Shown here: in pieces, positions 13,903-63,375 of the stretch
How positions within the stretch are numbered: the stretch's first letter is position 1
Layout: each line of letters begins with the position of its first letter
DNA from: Octopus sinensis
Taxonomy: Eukaryota
Assembly: GCF_006345805.1 (NCBI RefSeq)
Contig: NC_043001.1
Location: 85,374,001-85,438,000, forward strand
Reading direction: 5' to 3'
Length of the DNA stretch: 64,000 nt
Program-made: the position numbers and the translations under genes
Notes under the pieces: model-generated
Database searches by the model: none
What the model was told of the DNA's origin: nothing
The model's input: only the letters and a program-made list of their open reading frames with translations

Positions 13903-14124
13903 AGGCGGCGAGCTGGCAGAGACGTTAGCATGCCGGGCGAAGTGCTTCGCGGTATTTCGCTCGTCGCTACGTTCTGAGTGCAAATTCCGCCGAGGTCGAC
14001 TTTGCCTTTTGGGGTCGATAAATTAAGTACCAGTTACGCACTGGGGTCGATGTAATCGACTTAATCCGTTTGTCTGTCCTTGCTTGTCCCCTTATGTTTA
14101 GCCCCTTGTGGGTAATAAAGAAAC
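13903..14124 (+). mobile_element. tRNA-derived SINE (family 1)
   Basis: ggcggcgagctggcaga head; gttctgagt.caaattccgccgaggtcgactttgcc...ggggtcgataaattaagtaccag core recurs at ~10378, 17090, 45252, 47620, 50460 and 59040. Confidence 0.85.
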
Positions 14125-14499
14125 ATATAATGTGAAAGAACGCTTCGCGCTTTTCTAAGTGACGTCGAGAAACGTGAATTAACATTTAGTTGCACTTCTT
14201 TGCGAATCACTGAGCTGTGAAATCAACGTGTATTTTAGCTTACTCTGCTCAGTTAAAAGAAAAATTGAGTAGATTTTTAGAAGCATACTATATTTTAGAT
14301 ACACTACTGCGAATTGTCTTTGTTTTCACCTATGGCGATATGGGAATTCCATGTATACTAGGTACTACGACATTTTTCGTCTATATCTTCGCATGTAGCT
14401 TCTTTAAGAAGTTGTAATATTATGATGCGTGAAAATGATGAATATATGAATTAGTTTTAAATTAAAATAAATGTGAAAATGCAATTCTGCTTGACTTAC

Positions 14500-14632
14500 T
14501 GCTTCGCATGTTGTTCCATTCCGAATATTCGATCCTGCGGTCATTGTACTGGACACCAGCAGCTGCAAAGAGCATACGGCAGATTTCAGCACGGCCACGG
14601 TGGTTGAAGTAGTGGAGAGTGTAGGAAGGCAT
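14500..14632 (-). CDS. S-crystallin gene A, exon 1 (coding part)
   Basis: caaccATG start; encodes [44 protein letters not shown] +1 nt; donor |gtaagt; 133 bp. Not in the ORF track in this frame. Confidence 0.97.
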
Positions 14633-14730
14633 GGTTGATGTTGTTGTGGGTTGTTGTAAAAAGACAAAACAAGAGTCCTGGAGTTGACTGATTAGCAGGC
14701 TGAATCTGGCATCGTCAGATGTGCCGTGTC

Positions 14731-14741
14731 CTTATATATAA
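14731..14741 (-). promoter_or_regulatory. Candidate TATA box of S-crystallin gene A
   Basis: TTATATATAAG on the minus strand ~100 bp upstream of the ATG, followed by Inr-like TCAG (14703-14700) and TCAGTC (14691-14686). Confidence 0.6.
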
Positions 14742-17089: not shown

Positions 17090-17480
17090 AGCGGGCAGAA
17101 TCGTTAGCTCACCGGGCGAAATCCTTAGCGGTATTTCGTCTGTCGCTACGTTCTGAGTTCAAATTCCGCCGAGGTCGACTTTGCCTTTCATCATTTCAGG
17201 GTCGATAAATTAAGTACCAGTTACGCACTGGGGTCGATATAATCGACTTAATGCGTTTGTCTATCCATGTTTGTCCCTTCTGTGTTTAGCCCCTTGTGGG
17301 TAGTAAAGAAATAGGTATTTCGTCTGTCTTTATGTTGAGTTCAAATTCCGCCGAGGTCGACTTTGCCTTTCATGCTTTCGGGGTTGAAAAATTAAGTACA
17401 TGTTGCGTACTAGGGTCGCTCTAATCGACTGACCTCCTCCCCGAAAATTTCGGGCATTGTATCTAGAGTAGAAAAAAAGC
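17090..17480 (+). mobile_element. tRNA-derived SINE (family 1), composite with duplicated core
   Basis: Two tandem copies of the gttcaaattccgccgaggtcgactttgcctttcat core. Confidence 0.85.
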
Positions 17481-17599: not shown

Positions 17600-17928
17600 G
17601 AGGAGACACCCTTCGGTCATGAATGACAATGGCATTGCACCTAGGAAGTTACCTTCCGAGGTACAAATCAGGGCATGATTATTTGTGGAAGGCTAGCAGT
17701 CGCCCATACATACCAGCCTCTCCTCTCCACCCTACCAGTGTTATCCGAGGGAAAGGCAAAGGCTTGGCACCAGTGATGTCGCAACTCATTTCTACAGCTG
17801 AGTTAACTGGGGCAACGTGAAATAAAGTGTCTTGCTCAAGAACACAACACGCAACCCGGTCCGGGAATCGAACTCACAACCTCACGATCGTAAGCTCTAC
17901 GCTCTAACCACAGAGCCATGCGCCTTCA
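17600..17928 (-). mobile_element. tRNA-derived SINE (family 2)
   Basis: Minus-strand head with A box TGGCTCTGTGG and B box GTTCGATTCCC; homologous to 61331-61644, 54695-54908 and ~38830-39150. Confidence 0.85.
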
Positions 17929-24787: not shown

Positions 24788-24837
<50 letters not shown>

Positions 24838-24841
<4 letters not shown>

Positions 24842-25740
24842 AATATTAGGGAATAAATCCAAATTTACAGGGAAAAAATCAGATTTAGGATTAAATCCAA
24901 TTTTATAGTAAAATATTATAAAATATTATTAGAGACAAAACCACTATTTTGCAAAACAAACAAGGAAAGACTTAATCAATACATAAAATTTTAATAAATA
25001 GTCAAAAAAAACGCCACTACAATTGTTTCTTGTCTTGATCGACAATCTTCAGGTGGACTTCCAATCTAAAATATCAATATTTTAAAATATAAAAATAATA
25101 ATTTTAAAATAATTAAAGTATGAATGAAAAAATATAAATATATAATCCATATAACCTATATATAATCCATATATAATCAATATATAAACAATATATAAAC
25201 TAAAATAAACCTATCAACAATTAAATATAAAATATAAAATATAAAATATAAAACAAAACAAAAATAATAATAATATAATAATAAACTATATATACACCCA
25301 TACACATATACCTAATTATATATAACCATATCTAACTACATACACTAAATCACACACCTATATATAATCCCTATACATACACATAAAAACGTCTAGGCAA
25401 CTATAAATAAAATAGCTAAATACTTCAACACAATACTTATTCATACTCCCACACAACACACATACAACCCACATTCACGCTCTAGAAAACGGACATCACT
25501 TAAAATTATGAACGGAGAAATGGAATAAATGGAATTAAAAATTATATTCACTTGGTAAAACGAATACTACTTAAAAATTATGAATGAAACAATGCAATAA
25601 AACAACAGACATCGCAAATAGACACAAATTACTACGAATTCCTTAACAAACCTACCATGATAAACCAAAACTCATAAAAACATATAATGATAAAATCTCC
25701 CTTTACTAAACTCTATAACATACCTATATAGCAATCCCCC
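24838..25740 (-). repeat. PLE 3' terminal repeat (pLTR copy 1)
   Basis: Near-identical direct repeat of 31107-32016. Confidence 0.92.
25014..25056 (-). ncRNA. Minimal type-I hammerhead ribozyme motif (pLTR copy 1)
   Basis: ccac-CTGAAGA-ttgtc(gatcaa)gacaa-GAAA-caattg-TA-gtgg: complete core, stems I and II paired, palindromic stem III, GUA cleavage triplet. Confidence 0.88.
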
Positions 25741-28542
25741 TAACCTAAACATTCACACACAAATACACACACGTAAACCACACACCCACGACATATACAA
25801 ATACCCACACCACTTACACATACCTATACATACATATAAACCTCAACATATACTCCAAAAACCCACTCAACCCCACACAGACAAATAAACACAAAATTAT
25901 GAATGGATTCTTTTATAAAACTACCATGATAAGCTAAAACTCACAAAACATAAATGATAAAACCTCCCTTTACTAAACACTATAACATACTTATATAGCA
26001 ATCCCTTTAACCTATACATTCACACACAAATACACACACGTAAACCACACACCCATAACAAATACAAACACCCACCCCACACACACACACCCACAAGACA
26101 TATACGCCTCAACATATACACCAAACAAAATTACTTTACCAAGGAACTTAACATATGTATAAAAAGTATAACCGCTCTGGAAACGAACATCTTTTAAAAT
26201 AATGAATGGAGAAATGGAATAAATGGAATTAAAAATAATATTCACGTGGCAAAACGAACACCACTCAAAAATTATGAATGAAACAATGTAATAAAACAAC
26301 CAACATCGAAAATAGACAAATTACCACGAATTCCCTAAAAAAAAACCATGATAAACCAAAACTCTTAAAAACATATAACGATAAAATCTCCCTTTGCTAA
26401 ACTCTATAACAAACCTATATAGCAATCCCCCTAACCTAAACATTCACACACAAAAAACACACACGTAAACCACAGACCCACGACTTATACACATACCTAT
26501 ACTAACTTATAAACCTCAATAGCACCAAAGCCACTCCCTCCCCACACAGACAAATTAACACATACATCCCAAAACCTAAATAACAAACCCATATACACAT
26601 TCACACACAAACACACACACACGCAAAAAACACACACACAACAGATAATATACTCCCTCACATATACGCATATACATACTCACACTAAACTCGATATATA
26701 CAACAATATTTACACACCCACACTCATACAGATAAATAAATTATACAACTAAAAACTCACACACAATCTCATATACATAAACACTCCAATAAAAAACAAC
26801 ATTAAATACATCGTAATTAACCAGAATATCAAAAATAACAATATGACATAAGGAGAAATAAAATACATACTTACAAGTCAGTTTCAAATTATGAAGTGAA
26901 ATTAAATTCTTAGCCGTTAAAAAAATCAAACCAAAATTACGTTACCATAGAAATATAACTTATGTAAAAAAAGAATACGCGCCATGGAAAGTAAACGTCA
27001 TTTAAAATTATGAATGGAGAAATAGAATAAATGGAACTAAAAACTATATCCACGTGGCAAACCAACACTACTTAAAAAAAATTTATTATGAATGGATTCT
27101 TTAATAAAACTACCATAATAAATTATTATATACAATTATGAGCTTTAGCTCATCTTAGCAGCTCTAACAAACAACTTGCAGTAACCCAAATCTATTATCG
27201 ATGCCTGCCTTACTACTACACTATTCCATTCCCAATTCCAAGCAACGCTAGCCCACCACCGGTTACAATTCCCAACTCCACCCATTCATTCACAATTTCA
27301 ACGACGTTCACCTCCACAGCGCTACATATAAGCCTCAACATATACACCGGAGATTCACTTTCACATCCGTGCGGATGGGTGAGATTATACATTGAGTGTA
27401 GTGATGGGGCTCCCATTACTATACACATTTGTACCTGTGTGGTAGTCTCCATGTGTATATTCACGCACGGGTATAAATGCAGGGGGTACACGCGCACGGC
27501 ATGTAAGTGTACCCCCTCACATGTACATATGCATGCTAGTTGGGCTCGATATGTGCAACAATGTAATCGCGCCCGCATACATGCATATGGGCGAGTTGCA
27601 CAATCAAAATACGCACACGTGTGTGTGTGCGTTCCCTGGTTGTGCAATTCACCCATCTGGGTGTGAGTGGGTGTAAGCGTATTGCTGTGGATGTCGAGCT
27701 TGATACGTATGTATATGAGTGTGTATTGGGGGGTTGTACGTATTTATTGTGTGCATGTGCTTCACGCACGTGCATCCATGTAAGGATGAATATATTGGGA
27801 TTGCTATGTGGGTGTAAATTGGGTATGGAGGGGGAGTTTTGTCATTGTATGGGTGTAGGTTTCATTTGTGATGGTGGTTTGTTGGTGATTTTTAATATTT
27901 CTGTATATTTGGGTTAGTTATGTATCATTCTAGTGTGTATAATTGTATACATATGATTGGTGTGAGTGGGATTACGCCCATTTTTGGGGATGTATGTGTT
28001 TATTCGTACGTATGGGGCGGGAGTGGCCGTTTGGTGTATATGTTGAGTCTCACATGCAATTCCAGGTACGCGCGAATGAAGTGGGCACTTATATTTGTTA
28101 TGGGTGTGTATACTTTATTATAACAGACAATACCCAAATAAAATCTGTCAATTCAACATACCAAATAAAAAACCAAAAATCAAAGGGATCGTAAACATTC
28201 ACACATACATACAAAACTCAATAAAAACACCACTAAATAACACCCATCACATATAAATATATCCTCCAAAATACATATAACAAATGCATAATAAAAATAC
28301 ATAATAAAATAAAATAAAAATAAAAAAATATATAAATAAAGAAAATAAAAAATCTAATATAAATTATTAAAGTTTTAACATACCATAAACTGTTATATTA
28401 ATATACATTAAAAATGAACTAATTAAACAAAGAAATATCAATAAAGACTAACTATAATTAAAGCCTAGACTACATACCAAAAAATATATTATCTAAACTA
28501 ATTTAAACTAAACTAAAGTAACCTAATAGGGAACTATTATTG

Positions 28543-29029
28543 CTATTTATCATGAAACTTATTATATAGGTAAAGTAACTTATGTCTGCATTTTATTTTG
28601 CGCTCTTCACCAGTATTAAGTAAATTATCATACTTAAAATAAAATTCTTTAAACTCATTAGAGCATAAATAACAACAATTAGCTCCTATAGTATATGATT
28701 TAGTTTTACAAATTATTTCCCAAATTAAACTATAATTAATATTTAGTGATTTAAGACTCCAAATGTACTTATTAAGTCCAGTTGAGTTGATTAAGTTTTT
28801 ATTTTTAAAAGAATTCATATGTTGTGCGATTCTTAGTTTTATTTTTGAGGAAGTAGAACCTATATAAACCTTGTTTTGGGTAATTATTATTCTTAAAGTT
28901 ATTATCATGTAATGTAACTATACATTTATACACTACATCGTTAATATCACAATTATTATTTAATATACAATTAGATTTATCTCTACATGTACAATTAATA
29001 TAAGTCTTATCATTAAATATTATTATCAA
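28543..29029 (-). pseudogene. PLE GIY-YIG endonuclease region (two frames, one frameshift near 28870)
   Basis: CTCRDKSNC...VVYKC then VYIGST...KLRIAQH...STGLNKYIW...CYLC..E...LLN...KCRH. Confidence 0.88.
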
Positions 29030-29721
29030 ATAATTTCTTTTTATAAAAATTATTCAGTTTATATTTATTAAATGAAGAAATAATGTTACCAACATTATTA
29101 GTGGTAGAATAACCAACTCCAAAATTATTAAAAGAGAAAATGTTTCTATATTTACGATTAACTCTAATAAATAGTTCTATAACATCTAAAATCTCTTTAA
29201 TAATATTCGTTTTTACTTGATCTCCATAAGGAACTATTAACCAAATTTATTCTTAATAACCTTATTATTATTATCATTATTATAAATATATTTATAATTC
29301 TTTATTTTATTAAAATTATTATCAAAATTATATCTATGTACAGCATTTAAGGAATTATTAATATTATTAATTTATCAATATAATTATTATAATAATTATT
29401 AAATTTATTTTTATTTTTATTATTCTTATTTATATTATTATTATTATTATATTTATTATTATTATTATTATTCTTATTTATATTTTTATCATTTTTATTA
29501 TTTTTTTTATAATCTATTATTTTTACCACTAAACCTAAAAAATTATAATTATTATTAGAAGTATCTCGAAAATTATCAATTAAATCTTTATCACTAATAT
29601 TATAAAATTTAATATTCCTATTATAACCTGCCTCTCTAAGGCCTCATTATAATAATTAGCATGTTTATTAAAAATCTCTATATCATAAGAGAGTAATGAA
29701 ATACGTTTACTTATATTATTA

Positions 29722-31050
29722 TCAACGAGATTTTTTAATAGAAAATGGGTGATTACTATTAACATTTATATATCTAAGGTTCTCATTAAGTTTATGATAT
29801 GGTTGTGTTTTACCTGTAATAAGATTAAAATTAACATCTAAATAATTAACATTATAATTCTCCTTATATATAGTAATACTTAAACCATATCTTTTAAAGA
29901 AACTATATAGTTTTTTCTTATATACTTCTAGATTCCTATTAGTACAATTCTTTGCAACTAGTAGAAGATCGTCTCTATATAAACCACCCTCTATCTTAAG
30001 ATTTTCTAATTGGAGTTCAGATAAAAGAAAAATACCTACTAAATCAGTAGCCTGTGCAGAATCTGGTGCTCCCATAGGTATATCAAAACAATCTCTAGTA
30101 TCATTCCTAGCCCATAATTTATTTTTATATTTAATTAGCGATTTCCTAGCCATTTTAATTACATTAACTTCTTCCCGTGACATACCCACTTTATTCATTG
30201 CGAAAATAAGCGCTTTATTAAACACAATTTCATTAATAGAAGAATAATAATTATCTATATCTATTTGAATAAATTTATAACGATTTTTATCTTTAATATT
30301 ATTAAACCATTTCAATGTATTATCATTACTAAACCATAATTTTAAATAATTAAGTTTATTTAACTTAATATATTTATCTAAAATAAATTTACTTAATTTA
30401 CCTAGGTCCGATTTACATGGGCAAATTAATCTAACTTTAGGTTCTGAATAAAAATTATCTTTATGGTCTTTAAGAGTAATTCTGGGGTGCAAAGGTACAT
30501 AAGGTTCAGTTTTATTATCCAACTCATATTTTAACATTACTACTTTAGAGGCCTTATTAATATTATAAAGAATATCATCTGGAACAATTTTATATTTTTT
30601 AATTATTTCTTTTCCTAATAGTTTATCATATAATTTAACATCTAATTTATATAGGTTCCTTGTTTTATCAGATTGTACTATAATACCATCCATATTTCTC
30701 ATATCTTTAATTTTAATTGCTAAATTCCTTAAATATTCATTATTTCTATTTGGGTATTTATGGAATTCAATATTTTTTACCACCTTCCATATACTATCTT
30801 CAAGTAATTGTAATTCTTTATTAAATGGAGGTTCCTTTCTAGATTTAAATTTAGAGGTAAAATTATCATCCCTACTATCAATATCATTAAATAAAAAAAA
30901 ATTATAGTAAAAAGCTTTCCATTTAATTCTAGAAATAAAATCTTTAACATTATTAACAAGTTTCAAGATAAATTCCTTTCTAGAAGGAATAGGAATATCT
31001 TTCAAAGATGAATCCCAAAACAGCGGTTCTATCTTACCTGTAAAATCCAT
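29722..31050 (-). CDS. PLE reverse transcriptase (N-terminal 442 aa; reading continues through frameshifts)
   Basis: SLKDIPIP, SDKTRNLY, ITLKDHK, RLICP, DIDNYYSSI, PMGAPDSA, LYRDD, YLDV, PYHK, YINVNSNHP: PLE-type RT motifs. Confidence 0.9.
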   Translation of the reverse strand: MDFTGKIEPLFWDSSLKDIPIPSRKEFILKLVNNVKDFISRIKWKAFYYNFFLFNDIDSRDDNFTSKFKSRKEPPFNKELQLLEDSIWKVVKNIEFHKYPNRNNEYLRNLAIKIKDMRNMDGIIVQSDKTRNLYKLDVKLYDKLLGKEIIKKYKIVPDDILYNINKASKVVMLKYELDNKTEPYVPLHPRITLKDHKDNFYSEPKVRLICPCKSDLGKLSKFILDKYIKLNKLNYLKLWFSNDNTLKWFNNIKDKNRYKFIQIDIDNYYSSINEIVFNKALIFAMNKVGMSREEVNVIKMARKSLIKYKNKLWARNDTRDCFDIPMGAPDSAQATDLVGIFLLSELQLENLKIEGGLYRDDLLLVAKNCTNRNLEVYKKKLYSFFKRYGLSITIYKENYNVNYLDVNFNLITGKTQPYHKLNENLRYINVNSNHPFSIKKSR

Positions 31051-31106
31051 AATTTACGAAATTGAGGTATTACACTCAATATACAAAATTATCAATATAT
31101 ATAAAT

Positions 31107-32016
31107 AATAAATATTAGGGAATAAATCCAAATTTACAGGGAGAAAATCAGATTTAGGATTAAATCCAATTTTATAGTAAAAATTATAAAATATTATTAG
31201 AGACAAAACCACTATTTTGCAAAACAAACAAGGAAAGACTTAATCAATACATAAAATTTTAATAAATAGTCAAAAAACCGCCACTACAATTGTTTCTTGT
31301 CTTGATCGACAATCTTCAGGTGGACTTCCAATCTAAAATATCAATATTTTAAATATAAAATAATAATTTTAAATAATTAAAGTATGAATGAAAAAATATA
31401 AATATATAATCCATATATAACCTATATATAATCCATATATAATCAATATATAAACAATATATAAACTAAAATAAACTATCAACAATTAAATATAAAATAT
31501 AAAATATAAATATATAAAATATAAAACAAAACGAAAAAAATAATAATAATATAATAATAAACTATATATACACCCATACACATATACCTAATTATATATA
31601 ACCATATCTAACTACATACACTAAATCACACACCTATATATATATCCCTATACATACACATAAAAACGTCTAGGCAACTATAAATAAATAAAATAGCTAA
31701 ATACTTCAACACAATACTTATTCATACTCCCACACACACACATACAACCCACATTCACGCTCTAGAAAACGGACATCACTTAAAATTATGAACGGAGAAA
31801 TGAATAAATGGAATTAAAATTATATCACTTGGTAAAACGAACACTACTTAAAAATTATGAATGAAACATGCAATAAAACAACAGACATCGCAAATAGACA
31901 CAAATTACTACGAATTCCTTAACAAACCTACCATGATAAACCAAAACTCATAAAAACATATAATGATAAAATCTCCCTTTACTAAACTCTATAACATACC
32001 TATATAGCAATCCCCC
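31107..32016 (-). repeat. PLE upstream pseudo-LTR (copy 2)
   Basis: Direct repeat of 24838-25740, ending ~55 bp before the RT ATG. Confidence 0.92.
31281..31323 (-). ncRNA. Minimal type-I hammerhead ribozyme motif (pLTR copy 2)
   Basis: Identical to 25014-25056. Confidence 0.88.
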
Positions 32017-32632
32017 TTTTCTCCGTTCATAATTTTAAGTGATGTCCGTTTTCTAGAGCGTGAATGTGGGTTGTATGTGTGTGTGTGTGGGAGTATGAAT
32101 AAGTATTGTGTTGAAGTATTTAGCTATTTTATTTATTTATAGTTGCCTAGACGTTTTTATGTGTATGTATAGGGATATAATATAGGTGTGTGATTTAGTG
32201 TATGTAGTTAGATATAGTTATATATAATTAGGTATAGTGTATGGGTGTATATATAGTTTATTATTATATTATTATTTTTTTGTTTTGTTTTATATTTTAT
32301 ATTTTATATTTTATATTTTATATTTAATTGTTGATAGGTTATTTTAGTTTATATATTGTTTATATATTGATTATATATGGATTATATATAGGTTATATAT
32401 GGATTATATATTTATATTTTTTCATTCATACTTTAATTATTTTAAAATTATTATTTTTATATTTTAAAATATTGATATTTTAGATTGGAAGTCCACCTGA
32501 AGATTGTCGATCGAGACAAGAAACAATTGTAGTGGCGGTTTTTTTGACTATTTATTAAAATTTTATGTATTGATTAAGTCTTTCCTTGTTTGTTTTGCAA
32601 AATAGTGGTTTTGTCTCTAATAATATTTTATA
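32017..32632 (+). repeat. Inverted truncated pLTR (copy 3)
   Basis: Reverse complement of ~31186-31800. Confidence 0.92.
32493..32535 (+). ncRNA. Minimal type-I hammerhead ribozyme motif (inverted pLTR)
   Basis: ccacCTGAAGAttgtcgatcgagacaaGAAAcaattgTAgtgg; a single change, in loop II. Confidence 0.88.
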
Positions 32633-34290: not shown

Positions 34291-34620
34291 ATTTAAGAGA
34301 GTTAACGTTAAGTGGCCAACTCCAGTGCTAGAAACAGCTCCTTATTCTGGTATAGCCACCGAAGATTGTTTCCACAGAAGAAATAACATTACCTTCAACG
34401 TAAGGGAAGCGAAATACAACTAATATGTGAGTATAATTGCATATTATGTTGATAAAGAAACAATTGTTCAGTATTAATCTATCTTTTCGTTGTATTTCGC
34501 TTCCCTTACGTTGCAGGTAATGCTATTTCTTCTGTGGAAACAATCTTCGGCGGCTATACCAGAATAAGGAGCTGTTTCTAGCACTAGAGTTGGTCACTTA
34601 ACGTTAACCCTCTTATATTT
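34291..34620. repeat. Long inverted repeat (~130-bp arms, ~68-bp spacer)
   Basis: 34291-34420 is the reverse complement of 34489-34620 with few mismatches. Confidence 0.9.
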
Positions 34621-40790: not shown

Positions 40791-41500
40791 TTATTACTAG
40801 TACTTTTATTAGTTCCTATCTAATGAAATTTAAGTGTATATTAGTCACTGATAATTTAATATTATACCCTGTGGTGTTTATATATCAATGAGTATGTAGT
40901 GTTTATTATTAACTCTTGAATAATAAAATAACGTACTTCACTCATAAAAATATTAGTTAAATAAAGTTTAGTCGTGTTTTGTTGTGGAAAAAAAATTATA
41001 TTGAACTTTCCTTATAGTAGTATCTATGGAAGACCGGTGGGATTATTATTTGTATGGACTTAAAGATGGATCGCAATTTAGCATATAATTTAGTTATTAC
41101 AGATTACTATTGATACCAATAAAATATACATTGGTTTAAATTTCGCTTGTAGTTTTAGTAAGGTTAGTGTTTAATCTTGCCTATATATTGATTCATTGAA
41201 ATAACGTGCTTATTAATCTATACATCAAAATACACTACGGAACACTGTAGGGATTATAATTATGACTCAATAGAGTTGTCGCTGTTCAGTTTAGTATTTA
41301 AGAGGGGTTGCAATTTACTTATGGAATTTATTTATCAATATGGTTCTACGTTGGGTAAATGTGTTTGAAAGTTGTGGTTTCTTTGGTTTGTTTGTTTGTT
41401 CCCAAACAATACTTATTTTAGGGCTGTTCAAATAATTATTTAAAAAATTCAGTATCAAACAAATCATACCAGTCTCACGAAAGTTTGTCGACGAATGTCG
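40790..41500 (-). mobile_element. Old decayed PLE endonuclease-region relic
   Basis: YFIGINSN, RSIFK and NPTGL relics in the same order as VYIGSTS, MNSFK and NSTGL of the younger element; flanked by (TA)n. Confidence 0.4.
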
Positions 41501-41584
41501 AAATTTGGTAATTTATATATATCTTATTTTTTTACGCGGCCACCTATGTAAATTGAAAGGATGCTGTTGGGAAACGAAAGCAAA

Positions 41585-44500
41585 AATGATCTCTGACAAC
41601 TATATCTGGTCTGTTGGCCTTAATTTCTCTATCTGTGTGTATCGGCATATCCCAGTGTATGGTTGCTTTCTCGTTTTCTGTGACCTTTTCTGGTGTGTGC
41701 CTATACCATCTTTTTTCTGTTGTTATTCCATAATGTTGGCATAGTTTCCAGTGTATATAGGTCCCAAATCTGTTGTGGCTGTGAATATATTCCTTCTTAG
41801 CCAGGACTGGGCAGCCAGAGATAATATGATTTATTGTTTCTTGTCCATCTCCACATATTCTGCAGTTACTTGTTATATTTCTTTTCGTTACATGTTTTTG
41901 GTAATTTCTGGTGGGTGAGGCTTTGGTCTCGTGCTGCAATTAAAAATCCTTCTGTCTCTGCTTTGAGTCCTGAGCTTCTCAACCATTGTTGGGATTTTTC
42001 TTTGTCTATTTCTTTTGCATTGAGTTTAGTCCAGTATTTACCATGAAGGGGTTTTTCTTGCCATCGTTTTATCATGGTTCGTTGCTGTTCTATTTTTAGT
42101 TTGGATTTCATTTGTTTTATAGCTTTTGTTGTTTCTTCATCTTCTTCTTCTTCTTCATATTTGTTAGGTGGTATGATTTCTTGTTTGTATTTAACAGCTT
42201 CCTTAAATACTGAGAACAGTCTTTTGTTTTGCTCGTGTTTTGCCGCTATTTGTATCAGTTTTCCTTCCTTATTTTTCTTGGTTTCCTATCTATATTGGTC
42301 AGTTCATTTAGTGTCCAGTTAAGGATATTGTAGCTGTAACTTATAACTGGGACGGCTAAAGTGTAAATACCTATTATCTTGTTTTTAGCATTGAGCTCTG
42401 TTTTCAGTATTGATCTAACTCGTCTATAATATTCTTTTTTTATTTTCTCTTTCATTTGTGTGTGTTGTGTCTTATCTAGTTCATGGTTTCCTAAGTATTT
42501 GTAAGTTTGGCTTTGGTCTAATTCTTTTATTTCATTTGTTTTATCTAGTGTGATGTTGCTTCTCTTAATTAGTTTTCCTCTTTTCATGGTTACTTTGGCG
42601 CATTTCCCTAATCCAAATTTCATATCTATTTCTTTGGTAAATCCATGAACTGTCTTTACTAATGTTTCCAGCTGTTTGTCATTTGTAGCGTATAGTTTTA
42701 GGTCATCCATATATAAAATGTGGCTGATCTTTTTGCTGTAACATTTATATCCGCATCCAGTTCGGTTTAGCATATCCGATAGAGATGACAGTGCTAAGCA
42801 GAAAAGGAGTGGAGAGAGTGTAGCTCCCTGGAATATTCCTCTTCTAATGAGGATGGCTTTGGTTTTCACAAGTCCCTCTTTTGTTTGGAGCTCTAGCACT
42901 GTTTGCCATTTATTCATAGAGTGTCCTATGTACTTTATAATTGTTGGTGCAACTTTGTTCATGGCTAGCGTTTCGAGAATCCATGTGTGGGGGATGCTAT
43001 ATAAACACCTTTTTGTAGTCGATCCAAGCCATACTGAGGCCTTTCTTCTTTCTGTGGTTGTCTTCAGTTATGGCTTTATTGATCATTAGTTGATCTTTAC
43101 AGCCATATGAGCCTTTGCGGCATCCTTTCTGTTCTTCTGGAAACAGGTTGTTTTCGTCCAGGTGCTTGTTCAATCTTTGCGATATTAATGCAGTACATTT
43201 GCGATATTACTGCAGTACATTTGCGATATTACTGAAGTACTCCCTACTTGTACATTGTAGGGAAACAGGTTATAGGTCTGTAGTTTTCTGCTTTTGCTGT
43301 CTCATTTGATTTGGGAATTAAGATGGTTTTCCCCTTTGTGAGCCATTCAGGCATTGTCTCTAGCTCTGCCAGGATGTTGTTAAAATTTTCAGCCAGCTTT
43401 TTGTGCATTCCTGTTAGATATTTCAAGCAGAAGTTGGGGATCTTGTCATGCCCAGGTGACTTCCAGTTGCTTAGTCTTTGCAGTGCCTGGGTGACCTCTT
43501 CAGTTGTTATGGGGTCCAAAGTTGCTCAGATGCTGAATTTGTTGTTTTAATACTCCTTTTTTTTGGTTGTTCGTTCGCCGACCATATTTCTCTCCAGAAT
43601 TCTTCCGCTTCTTCTGCCGTTGGTGCTGCAGTGATTTCTATTTTATTTTTGCCAAGTTCTTGGTAGAACTTTTTGGGGTTGGAGTTGAACTGTTTGTTTT
43701 GTTCAAAAAAACGTTGGCGTTTCTCGTACCGGCGGATCCTTTGTGTTTTGGCAAGGATATCTTGCTTCAGCTTATCTTTTATCTCAGGTAAATCTTTTTC
43801 TGTGGTGTTGTATTTGCGGAGTATTTTTGTTTTCTATTTGTTGCTCAGTAGCGTTGATTGTCTACTGATTTCATTAAGAATTGACATATCTTTTCTCATT
43901 TTTTGTATTTTGTTTTGGATGTTATTTATCCACAAGGTTTGTTTAGGTGGTGGTACTCCTGTTTGAATGGGTTTGAGTGAGTATGCAGCTTCTTTTGTGA
44001 CTGCAGTGGCTGCTGCGTATACTAAGTCATTTAGCTCAGTGACATCGCTTTTTGTTTCAGTGGCTATTAGTTCCGTGACAGCTTGTTTTATGCTGTTTAT
44101 TATTGATGTTGTTGTTTTGTCTATTTTGATTTTTGGGAGGTATGGTCGGTGGTCCATTTTGAGCTCTGTGGTTTTCAGTTCTTTGATTATTCTACTTTTT
44201 ATAGTTTCATAATCATTAGGCTCCCCTTCGTTGTTTCCAGGTTTTAGATTTGTGTCGCTTTTTATCTCATCCGTATGTTTGTTCGTCGTGTCTTGGCTTG
44301 CTGTTTGTCGTGTATTATTATGTATCCTTACGGTCTGGGTTTGTTGTTTTTTGTTTACATCGTTTTTGTCGGAAATGTTACGTTTGTCTTCGTGTTTTAC
44401 TGTTGTGGCTTCTATCTACATTTTCCTGATGTATTTTTTTCTTTTAAATGTTCTATTTCTATTTCTGATATTTTTTTTACGTTGAGAATATATCTCCGTA

Positions 44501-45188
44501 TATTTGCTAGTTTATTAGGTTTCATTGTTGTATCCAGGTCTTTAGTTATGTTATTTTTCTTCCATATTTTGTATGAATGTGTTGTTGTATTTTCATTCTT
44601 TGGGTAGAGCACTGCTGTAAAGTAAGCGTGTAGGATAGAAATGTATTCCTCACGTGTCCATTTATGTCTTTTGGTTTTTATTTGCGGGACACGAGGAACA
44701 ACGTCCGGCCCATTATTTTGACGGTCGTCATTTTCGTAGGGTACCGGTCCGTTCATTTCTGTTGTCACATTGTTTTGCACGTGTAGTTTTTCGTACATTT
44801 TATGTTGTAAGTTTACAGTACGTACTCCCGATTGTTATTCTTGGGTTCAATAATACCGGTATTATTTAATTTATTCGTAGCTTTTTTGTACATGGTGTTT
44901 GGGGCCGGAGATGATCTGGTGTTGATGGATCGTAATGTATCAAGCATGTTTACATGTGTTGTGTTAGAGGTGCAGATGATATCGAGTTAAAATACATCAT
45001 TTCGTTTTGAAAATAGTAATAAATTTCAATGAGTATTACTTACTCGTATATAGTCCAATCCTTTGTCAGTTATTTTTTAGCTCCATGCGATGTCTTTGTT
45101 TCCGATGTTTGTGGATAGATTTCGGAGCACTGTTTTATCGCTCTCACATGTTTAACGTCCCCAGTGTCTGTTTAAAGTCCCCAGTGTC

Positions 45189-45252: not shown

Positions 45253-45410
45253 GGCCGTGACCTAGCAGAGTAGTTAGCTCTCCGGATAAGATGCTTAGCT
45301 GCATTTGTTCCGCCTTTACTTTCTAAAATAAAAAAGGCCGCCAAGATCGAATTTACCTTTCATTCTTCCGGGGTCGATAAAGTAAGCACCACTTGTGCAC
45401 TGGGAAAAAA
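45252..45410 (+). mobile_element. SINE family 1, diverged
   Basis: Diverged head and ggggtcgataaagtaagcacc core. Confidence 0.7.
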
Positions 45411-45420
45411 ATTGAAGGTG

Positions 45421-47281: not shown

Positions 47282-48375
47282 GCGATAATTACTTATAAAT
47301 ACGAAAACAAAATATCCACTATAGGTAAGAAAATAAGCATTGAAAAATGACTAAATCTTGCGTTCCTGAGAACGTTCAAGAGATGACTTTATCTATAACA
47401 GAAATTCACAGCATTTAAAAAGATGTGCATGTTAGATATAATTGAAAGTTTAGTTGATTCTTAGGACATGATGTTGCCAGTATTTGTACGTATTTATAAG
47501 TAATTATTTCTAGAGTAATAGCGATAAATGTCTGAAACTAAAGAGTAAGTTTTGAATATGGCATCGGGGTTTGTTTTCAGATACAGAGAAAATTAAATGT
47601 GACGCGTATAAAGTAATACTATTAGTTTCAAATTGTGGCCCAGGGCCAACATTTTCGGGTATTGCAGTAAGTCGATTACATCGGTCTTGGGGTTCCACTT
47701 CTACTCATTTTATTGACCCCGTGAGGGTAAAGGGTAAAATTGAACTCGGCGGAATTCGAACTCACACAGGTACAGACAGGTGGAATTCTGTTAAGCATTT
47801 TGGCACTTCTTTTATTTTTTATTTTAGACTTTTGTATTATCTTCAAACACTCTAACGTACACTATTTAGTGGAATCTATTCATGACAATTGTGTATGCCG
47901 TGTAAAGAAGAATTTGGATTTATCGTTATAGAAATGTTTCTTAGTCGTAAGCTTAGCAGTGTTGGTGACATGAACTTTATACACTCCAGAATCGGAAGCA
48001 GCCCACTGTGAATTGTTCGAAGAAGAATTCTAAAATAATATTTTCGTACTAAAATCTTTAAGAAATAAATTGTTTGTATAACACTAAAATGAATTAACCC
48101 CGATCATTTTCGACTCCAGTTGAGATTAACTCAAATAAATTTACGCAACTAAAAATATAGCCTTCGGGAAAATAAAAGTAAAGAACATAGGAAAAATACA
48201 AATATGCGAACTTTCAATTTTACTTCCCACTTGAATTAATGAAAAAATATCCATTGTGTATTGTCAAAACAAAACGAAGTAATGATTTTTTTAAAACATT
48301 TATTTTCTTAGTTTCGTTTTAAGGTTTTTATTTATTTATTGAACAAACCAAACATTTAAAATTTACAAAGCTTAA

Positions 48376-48381
48376 TTTATT
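48376..48381 (-). promoter_or_regulatory. Candidate polyadenylation signal of gene B
   Basis: AATAAA on the minus strand ~180 nt after the stop; further overlapping AATAAA at ~48327-48340. Background is AT-rich. Confidence 0.45.
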
Positions 48382-48560
48382 GGTTGCATTGCAATATTAC
48401 CTTTCTGTTTCGAAGACCTTATCCATATTTTCAACTGAAGGTGGAGTTAAAACTCCATTGTCATATATTTTCATACACATTACTTTGAAATGAAACAGTA
48501 ATATACTTCCTAGATTGAAAAAATTGTTTACATTCATCTTCGTCTTTGTTTTCTTGTCCT

Positions 48561-48725
48561 TTAAAAATCGGTGCGGGATCTCTTTTGAAGGTAGCTCGAC
48601 ATTTTCGGGTGGCTAATTACACGTTCCCTCAATGCTTGAAGTTTCGGATAGCTACGGAGGAGGGATTCATCTTCCATCAGTGGATTCTCCAGAGCGCAGA
48701 AACACATCATATCAGCCATGGTTAT
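48561..48725 (-). CDS. S-crystallin gene B, exon 6 (terminal)
   Basis: attactcag| then [54 protein letters not shown] (165 bp including TAA). Confidence 0.96.
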
Positions 48726-54694: not shown

Positions 54695-54908
54695 TAAAGG
54701 CTCATGAGCCCGGTTTCCCGGTTTCAATGCCGTATGCGTTCTCCAGTTGAACAGGACGCCAGTGCATCGCAGCATTACTCATTATTGCCAGCTGAGCGGA
54801 CTGGAACAACGTGAAATGAAGTGTTTTGCTCAAGAACACAACGCGTCGCCCGGTCCATGAATCGAAACCACAATCTTACGATCACGATGCTGAGCCACGC
54901 GCCTCCAC
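54695..54908 (-). mobile_element. tRNA-derived SINE (family 2-related)
   Basis: Shares aacgtgaaatgaagtgttttgctcaagaacacaacgc and the tRNA-like head. Confidence 0.75.
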
Positions 54909-55102
54909 ATAGATATAGATATACAATATAGATAACACACACACACTCACACACACAAACACGCACACACACACATACACACACACACATATATATAGAT
55001 AGATAGATAGCAAATATATATATATACATACATTGGTATACGCATCCACTTTTGCACACATACGCAACTTGCACTCATAAAGCGAAAAGGACAGAGAGAA
55101 AC

Positions 55103-61330: not shown

Positions 61331-61644
61331 AGACCCTTTTCAGTCAAGACTAACCATGGGATTGCGCCTTGAAAGTATGGGCAAGTTTCTTTCTGAAAGT
61401 TCAACGGTCGCCCATGCATAACAGTTTCTCCTCTTGGCGTCACCGATACTGTCTAAAGGGAAGGGGAAGACGGATACAAGTTGGCACCAGTGACGTTACA
61501 ACTTATTTCTAGTACTGAGTGGACTGTAGCAACGTGAAATATAGTGTCATGCTCAAGAACACAGCAAGCAACCCACTCCGGGAATCGGATGTACAGCCTG
61601 GTGATTGTAAGCTTGACGCTCTAACCACCGAGCAAGCACCTTCA
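61331..61644 (-). mobile_element. tRNA-derived SINE (family 2)
   Basis: Colinear with 17600-17928. Confidence 0.8.
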
Positions 61645-61745: not shown

Positions 61746-63375
61746 GCGGCCAAAATGTTCAGAACGGCATTGTTTTCGTCAGAAAAGTAGATATAATTTT
61801 TTTATCAAAGTAGTTTTATATTCTATAATTTTCACAGACAATAAATACAATATTAATTGTTATTGTCTGAGATTTTCTTGTAATTTAAGAGGATAATGCA
61901 AATGTTATGGATGATTTAGTGATTTACTGCAAAACCCATGGCGGCCAAAATTATCAGAACGGTTGAAAAAATGACAAAATAATCAAAAATGATAGAGAAT
62001 ACTGGAATTATTTAACATTTAGTGTGAAGCCCTTTAGCTTCAATCACACTCTAACATCTTTGACTGCATGAGGAAATTAAATTTTCAATTTCTTGTTGGG
62101 TGATCTTATTCCATTCTTCCTGAAGGGCATTCCATAATTGCTCAGTTGTTTTAGGATTTCTGGCTTTCGAACGTTCTCCTGGAATATTCCATACATTTTC
62201 AATAGGATTGAAATCTGGGCTTTGAGCAGGCCAATCCATAACAATAACCTTTTCAACCTTAAGGAAGTTCATGACCACCTTAGCCTTGTGACATGGGGCA
62301 TTGTCGCTTAATTGAATTTCATGGGTGGTCGCTTAATTGAATTTCTCAGCACAGGCAAGACATGATCTTTTACAAGTTGTTTATAAACTCCTGCATTTAC
62401 CTTTCCATGTAATCGCACCAAAGGGCCCACACCATCTCCAGATATCAACCCCCAAACCATGACACTTCCTCCACCGAATTTAACACCAGTCTTAAAGCAT
62501 TTAGGCGACAATTTTTCACCTACTTTTCTACGAACGTACATTTTCCCATCTGAGCCAAATAACATAAACTTAGATTCATCACTGAAATGCACCGTTTGCC
62601 ATTTTTCTTGAGACCACAACACATGTTTGGTTGCAAAGGTAAGACGACACTTTTTATTCTTGGAGCTGATCAGTGGCTTCACTGCAGGTGCTCTTGCTTG
62701 TAGGTCATGTTCAACTAAACGACGAGACACAGTTTTTCAAGATAAAGTTTTCTTCAATACAATGCTCATTTTCCGAGAAACAGCAGCAGCAGTTTTAAAT
62801 CTGTCCTTTTTAACCAACTTTACCATAGCACGATCTTCTCTCTTGGTCGTTTTTCTTGGCCTACCTATGAACTTTCTTACTTCACACGAACCACAATCAT
62901 AGTAGACCTTAAGAATACCGTGTACAACACTTTTTGAATTGTTAACAATCTTTGCAATAGATCCAATACTTAAATTATCCTTCTTTCGAAGCTTAATAAT
63001 CTGCTGACGAATTGGTAACGGAGTAAGTGGCATTATATTAACAAAGTACACTGCAAATATTCTTTCTAATGTTTAGTAAACGAACCGTCACGTAAACAAA
63101 TTCAAAACATTAGAGTTCGCCGGTTAAATATACTAAAACACGGAGTAAAAGCAACCGTTCTGTTCATTATGGCCGCCATGGGTTTTGCAGTAAATCACTA
63201 AATCATTCATAACTTTTGTAGTATCCTCTCAAATTACACCAAAATCTCAGGCAATAACAAATAATATTGTATATATTGTCTGTGAAAATTATAGAATATA
63301 AAACAACTTTTCTAAAAAAGTATATCTACTTTTCTGACGAAAACAATGCCGTTCTGAACATTTTGGCCGCCACTG
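61741..63375 (-). mobile_element. Tc1-family DNA transposon, IR/DR type, full length, in intron 2 of gene B
   Basis: ~223-bp TIRs (61741-61964 and 63152-63375), right end cactg|TA, left end in (TA)n; outer and inner direct repeats gcggccaaaat..tcagaacgg. Confidence 0.93.
62012..63033 (-). pseudogene. Tc1 transposase (DD34E), disrupted
   Basis: HTH plus GRPRKT, FSDESKF, DNAPCH, WPAQSPDFNPIENVW with 34 residues between second D and E; frameshift ~62735, duplication 62303-62345, premature TAG at 62051. Confidence 0.92.

Follow-up and report, generated by a model that had tools for sequence, protein, structure and literature searches.

Minimal type I hammerhead ribozymes with a short stem I, a full core and a palindromic stem III region occur in the pseudo-long terminal repeats (pLTRs) of metazoan Penelope-like elements (PLEs), for which a dimer model and a low activity of such minimal ribozymes were reported (Cervera and de la Pena 2014, PMC4209133). 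The same source places an intron of the D. virilis Penelope beside helix I. Penelope of Drosophila virilis (PMC2377424) and the Adineta vaga Penelopes (Arkhipova 2013, PMC3846280) have a pLTR start site, an intron in the 5' untranslated region (5' UTR), head-to-head inverted junctions and an asparagine-rich linker; an antisense template was proposed for the head-to-head junctions and for intron retention, with sense versus antisense left open (PMC3846280). In Poseidon of Anolis (PAc), the tail is delimited by two internal start sites of reverse transcriptase (RT), which works chiefly on unprocessed RNA (Frangieh 2024, PMC11167929). Hydra elements are already in print for octopus as Hydra-1_Obim, in a paper that states the role of pLTR hammerheads and the cause of intron keeping in PLEs as unknown (Craig 2021, PMC8557442). 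Here, we describe a Hydra-like PLE in 64,000 nucleotides of Octopus sinensis DNA (NCBI RefSeq assembly GCF_006345805.1, contig NC_043001.1, positions 85,374,001 to 85,438,000 of the forward strand), a stretch called the window below and numbered from its first nucleotide. Its hammerheads are probably the standard pLTR motif of a young element lying between likely S-crystallin genes, predicted to fold only as dimers and likely to cut rarely, with copies likely made mostly from uncut sense RNA.

A Hydra-like element and its hammerhead motifs

The insertion (Table 1) lies within a (TA)n tract that flanks it on either side, and is ordered as inverted pLTR, truncated 5' pLTR, open reading frame (ORF), 3' pLTR and tail. 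Self-BLAST gives direct repeats at 24836-25741 and 31104-32017 and an inverted copy at 32018-32632. Aligned with each other, the 5' and 3' pLTRs show 2 mismatches over 815 paired columns, besides 32 gap columns, and by this similarity the insertion is very young. The ORF is interrupted near 28900, near 29730 and within the asparagine-rich linker, and assembly indels may account for some of these frame breaks; other genomic copies carry open frames of 710-761 aa. The window insertion is a long unspliced copy, and likely a dead end because its 5' pLTR is without a start site and its ORF is broken here.

Table 1. Positions of the element, its parts and the neighbouring genes in the window.
Feature	Position	Strand	Remarks
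Whole insertion, Hydra-like PLE with C-terminal endonuclease	24836..32632	-	self-BLAST, copy-end pile-ups, flanking TA runs
Optional 77-nt tail to long 3' end	24836..24912	-	putative RT start site 2, 182 nt past cut site
Second exon to short 3' end	24913..25065	-	putative RT start site 1, 105 nt past cut site
Minimal type I hammerhead, 3' pLTR	25014..25056	-	predicted cut after 25018
pLTR intron, 1,809 nt	25066..26874	-	GTAAGT at the donor, TTTTAG at the acceptor, which is 9 nt from stem I
First exon, 23 nt	26875..26897	-	first base = likely transcription start
RT and C-terminal GIY-YIG ORF	28546..31050	-	broken in this assembly
5' pLTR, 5'-truncated inside intron	31104..32017	-	without exon 1 and start site
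Minimal type I hammerhead, 5' pLTR	31281..31323	-	predicted cut after 31285
Inverted pLTR, 615 nt, 5'-truncated, without tail	32018..32632	+	head-to-head with 5' pLTR; 97% to 31185-31800
Minimal type I hammerhead, inverted pLTR	32493..32535	+	loop II GAUCGA; predicted cut after 32531
Downstream S-crystallin-like gene, TATA box and first coding exon with ATG	14498..14740	-	TATA at about 14740
Upstream S-crystallin-like gene, last exon, stop, AATAAA signals	48300..48725	-	stop at about 48561

A Pfam scan returned neither an RT nor a GIY-YIG match for the element ORF, and both sets of motifs were matched by eye to Hydra alignments. Among 30 loci, 27 of 28 matches read QSDKT, with DKT instead of DKG; the CxCx5C linker is CTCRDKSNC or a close variant in 25 matches, with no CCHH; and CxxC and CxH surround a conserved E and N (CYLC...E...N...CRH). 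The Hydra clade, including Hydra-1_Obim, is alike in DKT, CxCx5C, CxxC/CxH around E and N, the C-terminal GIY-YIG, (TA)n targets, a hammerhead near the 3' end, an inverted truncated pLTR and a tail (PMC8557442; RT motifs by eye). The octopus family differs in reading KWK for RWK (26 of 26 copies, a conservative change), in a unit of 6.3 kb against "generally <3 kb", in a tail of 77 nt against 30-40, and in a hammerhead sequence that is not that of Hydra-1_Obim. Because KWK replaces RWK, Pfam gives no RT match and the RT and endonuclease motifs were compared by eye, the element is classed on its motifs as Hydra-like rather than as a plain Hydra member. The asparagine-rich, low-complexity linker between RT and endonuclease (29250-29540, minus strand) resembles the N-rich inserts of the Adineta Penelopes (PMC3846280). 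An RT with C-terminal GIY-YIG, direct and inverted 5'-truncated pLTRs, an optional tail and a pLTR hammerhead are all present, as in endonuclease-bearing (EN+) PLEs. This structure and the motif match support the preliminary description of the locus, which, from the letters alone, had read the motifs as minimal type I hammerheads of PLE pLTRs.

All three 43-nt motifs consist of a CCAC/GUGG stem I, the core CUGAAGA, a stem II of 5 bp capped by a 6-nt loop, GAAA, CAAUUG, and UA before the cut. The positions, strands and full core first reported for the three motifs are all correct, with loop II (GAUCAA in the minus-strand copies, GAUCGA in the plus-strand copy) as their sole difference, and the two minus-strand predicted cut sites are 6,267 nt apart. 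The hammerhead search that had been proposed gave exactly three loci in 64 kb with a generic type I descriptor, whereas 100 dinucleotide-shuffled versions averaged 0.01 (maximum 1). An Rfam scan of the window gave 98 matches at E<=1, none a hammerhead, as expected because the motif is without a stable stem III. The CUGANGA and GAAA core, an NUH site and stems I and II are present, and the conserved G10.1-C11.1 pair is absent, being U-A in this family and, in 11 aligned sequences, A-U in 3, U-A in 2 and unpaired in 6. The core is kept among genomic copies, with 2,919 exact matches genome-wide versus 0 for the reversed control, and sister families contribute a further 970. The motifs share the short stem I, full core, palindromic stem III region and dimer model of the metazoan PLE hammerheads, unlike which they have no G10.1-C11.1, a stem II of 5 bp, highly uniform copies and a spliced form fixed in the genome in over a thousand copies (PMC4209133). 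At two sampled loci (L145:1501-1525 and L248:1501-1528) the core of the hammerhead is deleted between both stem I arms.

Stem III had first been given as only the palindrome CAAUUG; the palindrome stands, and the self-complementary stretch is actually 8 nt, ACAAUUGU, counting A15.1 and U16.1. In folding predictions, stem III brings nothing to the monomer (-5.4 vs -6.2 kcal/mol) and the active dimer is the co-fold minimum (-22.0 vs 2 x -6.5 kcal/mol), as it is for all three natural palindromes (CAAUUG, CGAUUG, CGAUCG). Across families, the varying palindrome pair is never broken in the 11 aligned sequences (A-U 5, G-U 3, G-C 3). The hammerheads are thus predicted to fold only as dimers; of the original proposal that they suit dimeric cleavage, the dimer fold is upheld by prediction and is in keeping with the kept palindrome pairing, and the cleavage is putative. 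Once at least 100 nt of exon 2 is included, the share of molecules predicted to form stem I is <=5% at 37 C and up to 20% at 20 C. The idea that splicing switches the folding of the hammerhead was considered and rejected, as spliced and unspliced leaders gave no consistent difference at 37 or 20 C.

Spliced copies and the RNA template

The pLTR hammerheads and dimer model (PMC4209133) and the 5'-UTR intron (PMC2377424) are already in print; the window adds the unspliced parent that fixes the intron ends, together with copy counts. In spliced copies, window 26897-26875 is joined exactly to 25065. Exact genome counts give 1,420 copies with the intron precisely removed and 1,177 with the acceptor retained, both being exact matches to patterns of unequal length and lower bounds. 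A second GT donor, 4 nt inside the intron, is used at two sampled loci, L097 and L115, and two GT donors joined to one AG are typical of spliceosomal splicing and hard to produce by DNA deletion. Of 29 loci from sister families, 28 have the AG 9 nt ahead of stem I and one has it 10 nt ahead; 22 of the 29 look exon-joined, a call defined by missing acceptor context with donors not located, and 7 are intron-bearing. Contigs of 4 runs guessed to be RNA span 24860-25067, and 3 contigs of run X6 pass into exon 1 at 25065; they are without ends or strand and may stem from transcribed spliced copies.

The first base of the first exon, the likely transcription start, lies in TCACTTC, which is initiator-like by the Inr consensus. 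Among 54 spliced arms (90 loci), 10 begin exactly at 26897, 41 begin inside exon 1 and 3, from one locus, begin upstream. Genome-wide, 14 of the 1,420 spliced copies have at least 8 bases upstream of the start, and the 12 of them examined reach <=359 nt further, none into the ORF. Exon-1 copies with upstream flank are spliced in 14 of 472 cases, about 3%, which could be up to about 6% because some subfamilies hold exon 1 twice. The duplicate exons lie 0.8-1.2 kb apart, and the pLTR intron region (25478-27115) holds several diverged internal repeats of 250-420 nt, 78-85% alike. A cap-derived G was considered as a further mark of the start and is not claimed: G precedes the start in 6 of 10 start-site arms and templated C in none, and for 5 of these 6 arms the G could be supplied by the other arm.

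Copy ends cluster at 24913 and 24836, and RT would start internally at these two points, 105 and 182 nt past the cut site, as in anole Poseidon in vitro. Both are 5'-UTR positions in TA-rich sequence that matches the (TA)n target. PAc is alike in its two fixed 3' ends, the optional tail between them, a hammerhead upstream and an uncut RNA template, but its start sites lie in the ORF without target homology, and the evidence for it is biochemical, that for the octopus family genomic (PMC11167929).

Spliced copies are short, not tandem and often head-to-head, with both ends in (TA)n. In a set of 29 head-to-head rows (26 loci, three counted twice), the 77-nt tail is on exactly one arm in 28, the exon variant is common to both arms in all 20 readable rows, and the arms agree on the donor at both +4-donor loci. 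Substitutions number 0.86 within pairs vs 2.19 between pairs, and arms share rare variants. At the A/G palindrome site the arms match in 27 of 29 rows vs 0.51 between pairs, the two mismatching rows being a point change and a gap, not A vs G. Signs of which arm was made first are mixed. Since the arms agree in variants, donor and subfamily marks, both likely come from one template, by double copying or cDNA fold-back, and, for the short copies at least, the spliced state of head-to-head pairs speaks for a sense template.

The Penelope systems of PMC2377424 and PMC3846280 have an intron of 75 nt vs 1,809 nt here, and those papers describe intron retention, in contrast to the abundant, precisely spliced head-to-head copies of the octopus family. 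For Hydra, no pLTR intron or spliced copies are recorded in the accessible Craig 2021 text and supplement rows, with 0 matches to "splic" in supplementary file 1 (PMC8557442). No prior report of spliced PLE copies was found in the literature searched, whose coverage excluded subscription papers, Repbase entries and bioRxiv supplements.

A likely main template is sense, spliced, uncut RNA. A pLTR-started spliced transcript would yield only a 176- or 253-nt copy, and a long copy would need a template with the ORF upstream of the RT start points, provided by read-through into the next pLTR or by a circle. In ORF-upstream templates the intron would seldom be removed, perhaps owing to an upstream exon that is then >4 kb; alternatively, cleavage near the acceptor might pre-empt splicing. 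If splicing depends on position in this way, long PLE copies would keep their introns and an antisense template would not be needed. We hold the balance even on the wider proposal that the family records the whole PLE cycle: two internal RT starts, the same RNA copied twice to give head-to-head copies, splicing confined to introns that come first in a pLTR-started transcript (giving mini-copies only), intron retention as a by-product without an antisense template, and hammerhead cuts in vivo in about 1% of templates, from which copies starting exactly at the cut site would result. Transcription start, splicing, RT start and ribozyme cutting are recorded in the ends of thousands of near-identical copies, which makes the questions of PLE intron retention, template sense and hammerhead role testable from one genome; the family also gives a defined RNA for assays.

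Ribozyme cutting and other accounts of the copies

GTA precedes the 3' half of the motif in 2,102 of 2,153 copies and is missing in 51. Every one of these 51 was read; 27 begin at the cut site (25 once two repeats are discounted) and the other 24 retain sequence upstream of it. Controls designed alike gave 13 of 28 upstream and 10 of 30 examined downstream, about 14 when extrapolated to all 43. In about 99% of the genomic copies the sequence runs unbroken through the cut site, and none of 94 anchored arms from 68 loci, read by eye, begins there. Copies starting at the cut site, roughly 1%, may be a trace of occasional cleavage, which in vivo is at most weakly hinted at by copy 5' ends. One fold-back copy (L144:1501-1525) has both arms starting at the predicted cut site, 1 nt apart.

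Several points weigh against the reading of copies as made mostly from uncut sense RNA by way of splicing. At the cut site, 5' ends are in about 2-fold excess over controls (27 vs 13 and about 14, p about 0.01-0.02, with unequal pattern lengths). Cleavage followed by re-ligation restores the site and looks uncut, and long copies could come from circles; an intact site excludes cleavage only for start-bounded spliced copies, because re-ligated circles would also span it. The covariation score of the palindrome pair was reached by 15 of 500 shuffles and, with 11 related sequences, is weak alone. The evidence on splicing, RNA ends and cleavage is a genomic record of copies, and spliced mini-copies may have amplified from one another, inflating the 1,420. 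The same caution extends to the unequal patterns behind the copy counts, to the sister-family exon-joined call and to the possible doubling of the 3% of spliced copies among those with upstream flank.

The account that fares best beside this reading, although we think it unlikely, takes up the circle model that Cervera and de la Pena proposed in 2014 (PMC4209133): a pLTR-started transcript would be cut by its two same-strand hammerheads acting as a dimer, the unit would re-ligate, and the circle would template long copies, with cutting 48 nt past the acceptor possibly blocking splicing and so keeping the intron. An invariant core, palindrome self-pairing kept across families, a dimer that is the co-fold minimum, the roughly 2-fold excess of 5' ends at the cut site and a re-ligation that leaves no scar are all in keeping with it. 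It fails, however, to account for the 1,420 copies delimited by the transcription start; in context, only a minor share of the molecules is predicted to adopt the hammerhead fold, the 10.1-11.1 pair is U-A, or unpaired in 6 of 11 sequences, and not the usual G-C, and for PAc the accessible text of PMC11167929 reports cleavage as dispensable, with no RNA-seq reads ending at the cut site. A linear unit cut between two hammerheads would carry the RT start points at its 5' end and allow only 105-182-nt copies; for that reason it could not rebuild the element unless circularised.

It is improbable that the short intron-less copies are a separate non-autonomous family that arose by a single DNA deletion or splicing event, or by a few such events, and was amplified as a miniature inverted-repeat transposable element (MITE) or retrozyme, which would tell little about the template. 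The copies are indeed nearly identical and palindromic, as MITEs are, and non-autonomous hammerhead ribozyme (HHR) derivatives of PLEs have been described (bioRxiv 10.64898/2026.07.22.740005). Yet the length of exon 1 at their 5' junctions varies among copies (6-23 nt), the intron is lost exactly from GT to AG, with two donors in use, and this loss recurs on at least 3 exon-1 variants and in several sister families, and the copies are not tandem, both ends lying in (TA)n at the parent's two 3' ends. The non-LTR retrozymes of that preprint, in its accessible part, are likewise small, non-coding, HHR-bearing derivatives of PLE ends, but form head-to-tail tandem units, whereas the octopus copies are single, head-to-head or ORF-linked, and start-bounded; no head-to-tail tandem non-coding HHR units were found among the copies.

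We give little credence to the idea that the palindrome acts like a retroviral dimerisation signal and joins two distinct PLE RNAs for packaging, with the arms copied from two molecules. Such a role would suit a strongly conserved self-complementary stretch, head-to-head two-arm insertions and the predicted dimeric state of the PLE protein (PMC11167929), but subfamily marks, rare point variants and the rare +4 donor are shared between the arms, and this concordance, which points to one template, led us to reject it.

Crystallin-like neighbours and other features of the window

The element lies between two likely S-crystallin genes, both on its own (minus) strand. The exon after the first coding exon of the downstream gene has a weak GST_N match (E 0.025), and the upstream gene has several AATAAA signals near 48300-48380. 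The element is intergenic, about 15.7 kb past the upstream poly(A) signals and about 10 kb before the next TATA box, and neither a motif scan nor tblastn of 6 exons found an extra crystallin exon near it between the genes.

The two same-strand hammerheads are in the sense of the crystallin genes, as first noted, though the element lies between two genes and not inside one. The further suggestion that any read-through transcript would release a 6.27-kb unit does not hold up: read-through RNA from upstream meets the 615-nt inverted pLTR first, which is predicted to pair with 42 of the 43 nt of the 31281 hammerhead, and such excision is unlikely because the upstream hammerhead would be buried and the element is intergenic. 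Processing of the locus from crystallin read-through RNA, freeing the 6.27-kb unit or altering crystallin expression, agrees with the shared strand and the 6,267-nt spacing of the cut sites, but is very improbable given the distances to the AATAAA signals and TATA box, the pairing of the upstream hammerhead, and a very young insertion that is one of thousands. The insertion is probably incidental for the crystallin cluster. Its 3' pLTR holds the only likely start site of the element (26897, minus strand) and faces the 12 kb that precede the next crystallin-like gene.

Elsewhere in the window, a palindrome of about 318 bp (34297-34614, arms about 125 nt) follows a TA-rich run and has no hammerhead core by the descriptor. 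A broken non-LTR retrotransposon lies at about 41500-44830 on the minus strand (RVT_1 match, E 3.8e-16), in which the next segment is of the CCHC and restriction-like endonuclease kind. A Tc1/mariner-type transposon with 168-nt inverted ends and an HTH_Tnp_Tc3_2 match (61798-63319) lies in an intron of the upstream crystallin-like gene. Two dispersed repeat families, both probably like short interspersed nuclear elements (SINEs), are each present three times, D20 at 13967-14061, 17154-17430 and 45326-45420, and D18 at 17764-17916, 54758-54910 and 61481-61633.

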